Shown piece after piece: positions 34,499-35,635 of a stretch of 64,000 nt of DNA. This DNA is from Candidatus Puniceispirillum sp. (GTDB taxonomy: Bacteria > Pseudomonadota > Alphaproteobacteria > Caedimonadales > UBA1908). Numbering within the stretch: position 1 is the stretch's first letter; each line of letters opens with the position of its first letter. The stretch covers positions 7,231 to 71,230 of the forward strand of contig PNJU01000006.1 of the NCBI GenBank assembly GCA_013822015.1. Reading direction: 5' to 3'. The notes below the pieces were generated by a model. That model saw nothing but the letters and a program-made list of their open reading frames with translations, searched no databases and was not told where the DNA came from. The position numbers were made by a program, and so were the translations under genes.

Positions 34499-35635
34499 GT
34501 GTCAGAGCGCATATTAAGAATATTCTATTTCGCTTATATTTTTCTCTTTGTATTGTGTGCGGATCTGGTGCACGCAAGCGAGCCGGGAGCAGAGGACGAG
34601 GCGCCCATGGTGCGGGCTCCAGCAGAAGTTGTTGCGCACATTCTCTCCTATCTTGGTGATGAGGATATATAGCCGAACCCTTATCATTTGATAATGCGTC
34701 ACTCGTCGCTCGTGTATCCCTACACACGTCGCTTGCCTCGTTTTCTGTTATCAAATTAAACTGTTCTAGCTATAGTCCGTGCGCAGCAGGTGTGCAGGCG
34801 TTGGCGTGAGGTTTTGGTGAGGCTGCATGGCCCATTGCCTGCTCTGTCTGCCTACCTTCTTGACATGTCTCCTTTGCAAAAAGCCAGGGATGTTTCTGAT
34901 TGTGACATCGCGCAGGTTCTTTCCCACCATGTCTCCAAAAGTGGTTATGTGCCCCTTGCCCATGCCTTTGTGGACCCCGCTGTATATCCCCAAGATACTC
35001 GTCTTTTGAAGGCGCATGATGTTGCTGCACACCATGAGATTTTGTCTTTGTGGCATAACATTATCTTTGGAAGTGCGTTTGTCGCAAGCTGTGAAAGCCA
35101 ACAAGGTCAGCAAGACAAAGGGAGATTTCGGGCCCGCCCCCATACCCTAGTGGTGCGCAGCCAAGACCTGAGAGCGCATAAGCATGCCCTCAACGAGTTC
35201 CTCAGCACACGAAGCGATCACCGCGTGGTGCTCGTTCTTGACGGGGAGGACTTTGCGCCAAACGGGGTTCTTTCCCTCTCGCTGATTGAGATTCCGGAAA
35301 ATCTTCATCAGCTTGTTTTGCGTGATCCATTTGAAAAAATAAAGCAGATTGATCGTTATTTTCTCATGTTTTGTAAGGAGATCGTATCTTTTGATATGCA
35401 GGGGCTTACTTGTGTGACAAAAGTGAAAGATCATTTCATGGAAGGATGTGTCGGGCTTACCTCCTTTGAGCCAAAACAGCTTACCCATGTTTTAAGCACA
35501 GGTACATATTTCCTGGAGTGTACCGGGCTTTCTCAAGCCGCGCGCCAAAAGGTGATTGATTTTGTTGCAAGGCGGAAAACGATTGCAGACACGTCCGGTG
35601 AGCCACAACAGAAAAAATGCAAGATCGATGAGTAG
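34499..35635 (+). pseudogene. F-box plus BspA-like LRR gene (family 1, copy C) interrupted by a 105-bp in-frame insert
   Basis: 57 codons from GTG 34499 (not in ORF track) read MSERILRIFYFAYIFLFVLCADLVHA|SEPGAEDEAPMVRAPAEVVAHILSYLGDEDI, then TAG; the same frame resumes at 34775 VRAQQVCRRW and is open to 35635; removing 105 bp restores YL-x10-VC F-box spacing as in copies A and B; body homologous to A/B (YPQDTRLLKA, PHTLVVR). Confidence 0.85.
34668..34774. mobile_element. Short palindromic MITE/RPE-like element (103 bp plus TA duplication)
   Basis: TA|TAGC-C-GAAC ... GTTC-TA-GCTA|TA ends; inner inverted repeat ATTTGATAA 34686-34694 / TTATCAAAT 34748-34756; central GTGTA-TCCC-TACAC hairpin; no transposase. 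Confidence 0.72.

Follow-up and report, generated by a model that had tools for sequence, protein, structure and literature searches.

Recent insertion of an IS630-type MITE very probably knocked out an exported F-box paralog in an uncultured alphaproteobacterium

In a 64,000-nucleotide stretch of DNA from Candidatus Puniceispirillum sp. (hereafter, the window), an F-box gene is split by a palindromic insert that opens with a stop codon and lies between two identical ATA codons. Is the gene still read across the insert, through a programmed ribosome jump or after excision of the insert, or was it simply inactivated? We found that simple inactivation, which the earlier note on this DNA had kept as its null model, is what the evidence shows. 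At a probability of about 0.9, a recent IS630-type MITE insertion knocked out this F-box paralog, and the site is not one of a programmed ribosome jump. The host is an uncultured bacterium, probably protist-associated, with an assembly (G000) of 1.98 Mb in 18 contigs (53% G+C, 99.7% complete).

We first describe the two pieces of the gene, both on the + strand. The 5′ piece (34499-34669) is an ORF of 57 codons starting with GTG at 34499. It encodes a hydrophobic, signal-peptide-like N-terminus, which continues with ...PAEVVAHILSYLGDEDI and includes the first half of an F-box (...AHILSYLGDEDI). This ORF terminates as ATA(34667-69)-TAG(34670-72). A second ATA (34772-74) stands 105 nt downstream of the first and is followed by GTC, from which the 3′ piece (34775-35635) encodes the second F-box half (VRAQQVCRRW...), a middle domain specific to this family, and repeats at the C-terminus. 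The 3′ piece has 286 open codons after the second ATA, with its stop at 35633-35635 and no other stop or frameshift, and it aligns with an ortholog in a close relative as well as with eight paralogs in the same genome. In the Pfam F-box-like profile (PF12937), the N-terminal piece covers positions 5-20 and the C-terminal piece positions 22-35, placing the split point exactly between profile positions 21 and 22. Each half is sub-threshold by itself (12-13 bits vs 24.3; PF12937/PF00646). The ORF coordinates and the Pfam half-matches thus agree with the earlier note that a palindromic insert of net 105 nt splits an F-box gene, and this locus is a disrupted F-box family member without a contiguous above-threshold domain.

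We then compared the locus with a metagenome-assembled genome, Proteobacteria bacterium isolate CAED1 (G003; contig C30, JAIUNT010000015), which is ~95% identical to G000. The CAED1 neighbourhood is syntenic, with an array of exported paralogs upstream and with gmk and a transaldolase-like gene downstream. The CAED1 F-box gene is intact, and its 390-aa protein reads ...AHILSYLSYEDIIRAQQVCRCW... The DNA of the 5′ piece is 93-94% identical to the 5′ end of this ortholog. The F-box domain checks relied on this natural intact ortholog, in which the domain is contiguous over profile positions 5-35 (E=1.8e-9, 37.7 bits); taking out the insert thus brings the F-box back to its exact spacing, as had been proposed. 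At the position of the MITE, CAED1 carries the empty site GAGGATATAATCC, so that the empty GAGGA-TA-TA-ATCC of CAED1 can be set against the filled GAGGA-TA-TA-[TAGCC...GCTA]-TA-GTCC of the window. This empty site proves the TA duplication and indicates that the gene works without the insert. A second filled/empty pair, found in an IS630 transposase gene (gtgaca-TA-taaaaaaaa in the relative G002, ggtgacc-TA-[core]-TA-taaaaaaa in G000), also bears out the TA duplication described in the earlier note.

The comparison with CAED1 further revealed an in-frame deletion of 141 nt (47 aa), whose junction in the DNA alignment lies at 35107-35108, bounded by AAGGTCAGC and AAGGCCAGC, two short direct repeats. 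The lost segment (LSCVMAALPDIL...FTGQEGQ) is part of the conserved middle domain and is conserved in the CAED1 ortholog and in seven of the eight paralogs. This loss is a second lesion of the gene, besides the MITE. In this genus, the genes of this large family encode a signal peptide, an F-box, the conserved middle domain and C-terminal repeats. The G000 genome has at least eight other intact paralogs, of which two lie in other parts of the window, and the F-boxes of intact paralogs score 32-45 bits. The interrupted gene is a redundant, effector-like paralog of an expanded family of exported F-box proteins.

The inserted MITE is a 107-nt unit, TATAGCC...GCTATA (34668-34774, + strand), composed of a TA, a 103-nt core and a second TA. 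Its ends are sharp, as judged from ~38 copies and from the empty site in the relative. The filled and empty sites identify the duplicated target TA at 34668-34669 (left copy) and 34773-34774 (right copy), and the net insert is accordingly 105 nt (the core plus one duplicated TA). The core, whose terminal inverted repeats are imperfect and whose centre holds the palindrome GTGTA..TACAC, is too short to encode a transposase. The long stem-loop predicted earlier was recovered: the imperfect inverted arms are 27 nt long, and the hairpin reaches -13 kcal/mol (z=-3.65) as DNA and z=-1.9 as RNA with its flanks. No RNA family of Rfam matched within 34300-35000. Only one of the six phases of this copy is open, namely the + strand phase at offset 1 of the 107-nt unit, which stays open in 12 of 34 copies and is absent from the earlier note. 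The open frame that the earlier note had seen on the reverse strand begins only after the terminal TAG and is not a read-through.

The earlier note also held that the matched ATA codons follow automatically from the TA duplication. This is not entirely so, as the codon match needs an A before the target TA, a chance of one in four. The TAG at 34670-34672, which falls in the phase of the gene, is supplied by the terminus of the element itself (TA|TAGCC), and nearly all copies have kept this terminus.

We next turn to the MITE family. G000 holds ~38 full-length copies, with 72-100% identity, plus a few fragments; 34 of the 38 are exactly 107 nt long. The termini TATAGCC.../...GCTATA are common to all copies, while the flanks are unrelated. 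The copy search and the empty allele of the relative thus confirm a multicopy mobile element. Sets of six, four and two identical copies indicate recent bursts of transposition. Closest to the copy in the F-box gene are C10:102207, with 1 nt of difference, and C7:95890, with 2 nt, and this identity of 98-99% indicates that the insertion is young. At least 14 copies are found in CAED1 and a single copy in G002, and there is none in G001. None of the 57 searched genomes outside the genus contained the MITE, and the family is therefore confined to one genus among the 60 relatives searched. One CAED1 copy occupies the same site as a G000 copy, while the sites of two other CAED1 copies are contiguous and empty in G000. 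These shared and lineage-specific insertions show that the MITE was active both before and after the split of the two genomes. The F-box insertion itself occurred in the G000 lineage alone.

We searched the genus for a transposase with the DDE_3 profile and found an intact-looking element in G002, degenerate pieces in CAED1 and one relic in G000. The G002 IS is 911 nt long, ends with TATAGCC.../...AGCTATA, and encodes HTH_Tnp_IS630 (E=2.6e-23) and DDE_3 (E=2.1e-28) domains in two overlapping frames. Both ends of the MITE, both ends of the G002 IS and the right end of the G000 relic can be aligned without gaps over their first ~27 nt. In this end alignment 11 of 45 columns are invariant, all of them within the first 27 nt (TATAGC, T17, T22, G23, A24 and A27). 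The G000 relic (C5, about 49908-50565) lacks its first ~80 codons, has stops inside, and has in turn been interrupted at a TA by one of the MITE copies. No other IS630-type transposase was found in the G000 assembly with the DDE_3 profile or by tblastn with the G002 transposase, and the contig ends do not carry IS termini. The terminal sequences suggest that the MITE is a non-autonomous, RUP-like element derived from the IS630/Tc1-mariner group. It was presumably mobilised in trans by an IS630-family transposase, which would now be dead in G000.

We then investigated what the MITE copies do to genes. Most are intergenic, often just beyond the end of a gene. About a fifth interrupt genes, each adding a stop. 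In a second F-box gene (F-box-like, E=7.4e-12), the MITE lies between codons 5 and 6 of the signal peptide (MKLLN|TSLLLGVLMSLPCTASG). The codons flanking this copy are unmatched (AAT before, TAT after), and the gene simply terminates. Other copies cut an MFS transporter gene (MFS_1, 1.1e-6), a UDG-superfamily gene (5.9e-10) and, within the signal peptide, an exported Sel1/TPR gene. Three copies stand beside ORFs of 232-236 codons, for which a common gene was considered; the proteins are unrelated (MFS, Sel1/TPR and F-box), and their equal lengths are coincidental. A scan of all 38 copies for open frames and spanning ORFs gave no credible read-through gene. Three read-through ORFs (C3:69711, C13:23134 and C13:22412) are short, of low complexity and without homology, and look spurious.

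These observations can be put together as follows. A MITE transposed into a TA in the F-box-coding part of one paralog of the exported family. As the MITE is oriented and phased here, its end reads ...ATA TAG, and translation from the native start should therefore stop after 57 residues, giving a signal peptide and half an F-box. Full-length F-box protein would then no longer be made.

We asked whether selection on the gene speaks for or against this reading. CAED1 is the sole ortholog available for dN/dS, as G001 and G002 give only paralogs at ~35% identity. Against CAED1, dN/dS is 0.69 for the N-terminal piece and 0.29 for the C-terminal piece (dS 0.105), compared with 0.46 for the neighbouring exported gene and 0 for gmk. 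These ratios cannot separate the hypotheses, because the insertion (~1% between sister copies) is much younger than the synonymous divergence from CAED1 (0.08-0.20, that is, 8-20%). Similarly, the recency of the insertion, with a net length divisible by three (105), explains why the downstream frame is still open. An open downstream frame and a non-neutral dN/dS are thus what is expected of a recent knockout, and are no argument for continued function.

For annotation, the 57-codon and 281-286-codon ORFs are to be treated as one F-box pseudogene interrupted by a repeat, and the ~38 genome sites of the 107-nt family call for masking or annotation. More broadly, this is a small, clear case of a recently active IS630-derived MITE that trims the effector-like genes of a reduced genome, one that is probably host-associated. 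Two F-box paralogs, an exported Sel1/TPR gene and the presumptive transposase source of the MITE itself were hit, which fits the known behaviour of RUP and Correia elements.

Of the alternatives, expression of the 3′ piece as an N-terminally truncated protein is a more plausible minor rival than either a ribosome jump or an excision switch, and we consider it unlikely. An outward promoter of the MITE, together with a start inside the gene (GTG 34790 or a later ATG), would then have remodelled the gene instead of killing it. Correia elements are known to carry outward promoters at their ends. DNA motifs are listed in a review (PMC2229807). At our locus, outward sigma-70-like hexamers (TTATCA-17-TATAGT; 34748-34776, + strand) span the element/flank junction, the -10 hexamer being formed by the element end plus the flank. 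A 281-codon ORF can be read from GTG 34790, its frame is intact, and the dN/dS of 0.29 given above would suit a product of this kind. However, the promoter is a consensus match only, at 9 of 12 positions, with two such sites found vs 0.7 expected in shuffles. The predicted transcript start lies a few bases before GTG 34790, and a ribosome-binding site is not evident. Such a protein would also have lost the two defining features of the family, the signal peptide and the intact F-box, in addition to the 47 aa of the conserved middle domain. As for transcripts, the three RNA-labelled runs contain only short contigs of the 3′ piece, none of which reaches the insert junction. Contigs identical to 35237-35510 are present in two of them; this region may be transcribed, while the contigs could equally be DNA carry-over. 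Taken together, a remodelled, truncated product has a small chance of being right.

An excision switch, in which the MITE is precisely excised at some frequency and the F-box gene is restored in a subpopulation (phase variation of an effector), is very improbable. The sets of identical copies do show recent mobility, and an excision leaving one TA would restore the frame exactly. However, the sole IS630-family transposase of the 99.7%-complete assembly is the 5′-truncated, stop-containing and MITE-split relic. We also examined population alleles in metagenomes by means of Logan contigs, from which rare variants are dropped. A CAED1-type lineage (5-6% divergent) with the empty site occurs in four metagenome runs (soil, activated sludge and wastewater), and one JGI contig also carries the CAED1-type empty allele. 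No empty allele with G000-type flanks was found in the contigs of 15 runs, which would miss rare variants, or in the JGI scan, an exact-pattern scan of metagenome contigs in which the junctions of both lineages were allowed and which detected empty sites of the CAED1 type only. In three other runs, contigs cross the junction from the element to the right flank with 0 differences from the window. This identity in three separate samples indicates that the filled allele is not an assembly artefact, and it counts against frequent switching as well. The excision switch considered in the earlier note is thus disfavoured by both the missing transposase and the allele survey.

The translational bypass raised by the earlier note fares worst. 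In this scheme, peptidyl-tRNA-Ile would leave the ATA at 34667-69 before the TAG, and the ribosome would slide over the 105-nt hairpin and land on the ATA at 34772-74, yielding a full-length F-box protein. The ATA codons are indeed matched, a TAG follows the first, the gap is a multiple of three, and the long hairpin places both ATA codons at its base; T4 gene 60 likewise has matched codons, a UAG and mRNA structure (PMC5462505). However, all three signals are accounted for by the element ends (TA|TAGCC ... GCTA|TA) plus the one-in-four chance that the flank base is A, and in gene 60 the gap measures 50 nt (PMC5462505), compared with 105 nt here. Upstream, the peptide is an ordinary N-terminus, 50 of whose 57 residues (88%) are identical in the insert-free CAED1 ortholog; it is thus not a product of adaptation to bypassing. 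A local take-off hairpin (34655-34705) is no better than shuffles (z=-0.92). The gene occurs without the insert in the close relative, the four metagenome runs and the JGI contig, and the second F-box gene hit by the same MITE family has AAT/TAT and terminates. Moreover, selection has had too little time since the insertion to build bypass signals. We therefore regard it as extremely improbable that a low-level 105-nt hop at ATA/UAG still gives some full-length F-box protein. If true, such a hop would be the first bacterial chromosomal bypass made in one step by a transposon, with the longest gap known, and recoding sites could then arise from transposons in a single event; our data give no pointer in this direction. 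Recent inactivation by the MITE thus remains our preferred reading.

Finally, we compared the locus with known systems. The bypass of T4 gene 60 involves matched GGA codons, a UAG after the take-off codon and a 50-nt gap, together with a specific nascent peptide, a compact take-off hairpin and flanking stem-loops (PMC5462505). Our locus shares with gene 60 and the Magnusiomyces byps the matched codons, the stop after take-off and a structured non-coding gap (PMC5462505). On the other hand, their gaps are 50 nt or less, compared with 105 nt here. Unlike in those systems, the upstream peptide shows no sign of having evolved as a nascent-peptide signal, a compact hairpin at take-off is not significant, the ortholog has no insert, and the matching features follow from transposon ends.

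The Rickettsia RPEs resemble the present element in being palindromic (105-146 bp), in belonging to an intracellular-type alphaproteobacterium, and in adding to the protein-coding gene in which they lie a net length divisible by three (PMC2229807). However, RPEs are defined by in-frame translation within functional proteins (PMC2229807), whereas here a TAG occurs at once in the phase of the gene. The suggestion of a new RPE-like family with in-frame coding copies is therefore not upheld: no gene is credibly read through any of the 38 copies, and the element, with its IS630-type ends, is closer to RUP.

The likenesses to Correia and RUP elements concern their described properties. Correia ends begin with TATAG, as do those of our element. 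They can form promoter-like hexamers with the flank, as in TTATCA-17-TATAGT here, and the long stem-loop transcripts of Correia/NEMIS can be likened to our hairpin-forming insert. No cognate transposase is known for Correia, whereas our element has a plausible IS630-family partner. Correia/NEMIS (Neisseria, about 107 and 155 bp) are also of the same size class and duplicate TA (PMC2229807).

RUP, a 107-bp unit with a TA target and IS630-like terminal repeats that inserts into transposase genes (PMC2229807), provides a closer parallel. There are differences between the two: RUP has stops in all six frames and is described as intergenic (PMC2229807), whereas one phase of our element is open in 12 of 34 copies and about a fifth of the copies here lie inside genes. 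The host of RUP is Streptococcus pneumoniae, while ours is an alphaproteobacterium, and a relationship in sequence is not expected. Nevertheless, both the RUP of IS630-Spn1 (S. pneumoniae; PMC2229807) and the element described here are 107-nt units that duplicate TA, and in both the terminal repeats resemble an IS630-family IS from their own lineage. Both exist as many near-identical copies with no protein-coding role, and RUP, too, inactivates IS transposase genes (PMC2229807), just as the only IS630 relic of the present genome is split by a MITE copy.

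The F-box gene split by the 107-nt MITE (window 34668-34774) carries a 141-nt (47-aa) in-frame deletion at window 35107/35108; the missing stretch corresponds to L031:3334-3474 in the intact ortholog of CAED1, the MAG of a close relative. This deletion is bounded by the direct repeats AAGGTCAGC and AAGGCCAGC. Since the CAED1 ortholog and seven of the eight paralogs all have these 47 residues as a conserved segment, the deletion represents a second lesion in the same F-box gene. Directly upstream lies a tandem array of ~220-aa exported paralogs (window 30753-34347; L031:1-2678) that is kept in CAED1, and the array member adjoining the F-box gene shows a dN/dS of ~0.46 between the two genomes.

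The right end of the MITE and its flank contain sigma-70-like hexamers (TTATCA-17-TATAGT, window 34748-34776) pointing to the downstream gene piece. Other MITE copies may provide similar outward promoters. Short contigs matching window 35195-35510, within the gene piece downstream of the MITE, are found in three runs from wastewater and 'organism D' that carry the label RNA or metatranscriptome, and those from two of the three runs are identical to the piece. Either low-level transcription or DNA carry-over may account for these contigs.

We found further genes split by MITE copies outside the window. In a second F-box gene, a copy belonging to a subfamily with six identical copies (C1:104580-104686) sits between signal-peptide codons 5 and 6. 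Two of the roughly eight genes hit in this genome are F-box paralogs, which is probably due to the tolerance of losses among redundant effectors of one family and not to targeting. Other copies split genes for an MFS transporter (C10:102207), a UDG-superfamily protein (C9:6433) and an exported Sel1/TPR protein (C7:95890). The Sel1/TPR gene is also hit in its signal peptide. Upstream of the MITE, both the MFS and the UDG gene already look degraded. Two contigs of the same genome, C11 (97.8 kb) and C14 (25 kb), have a G+C content of 46%, compared to 53% for the remaining contigs, and their ends share nearly identical 50-mers (TTATGACTTTGT[A/G]GAGGCGTACCACCGCGGGGGGCTTGAGGCCGCG...). They may belong to a replicon of their own, for example a plasmid, or represent an element bounded by repeats.

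The single MITE copy of the congener G002 lies 1.8 kb from a compact 911-nt IS630-family element (L054:3469-4379; G002 C13:32968-33878). In this element, the HTH_Tnp_IS630 and DDE_3 parts are read in two frames that overlap around an A-run (ACATATAAAAAAAACCC). This arrangement of the reading frames suggests programmed frameshifting. In the genome of the window, the only IS630-family transposase sequence is a relic on C5 (49908-50565; L055:1409-2066), which is 5'-truncated, contains stops and is split by one copy of the very MITE that this transposase presumably once mobilised. RUP has been described as showing the same self-limiting pattern.
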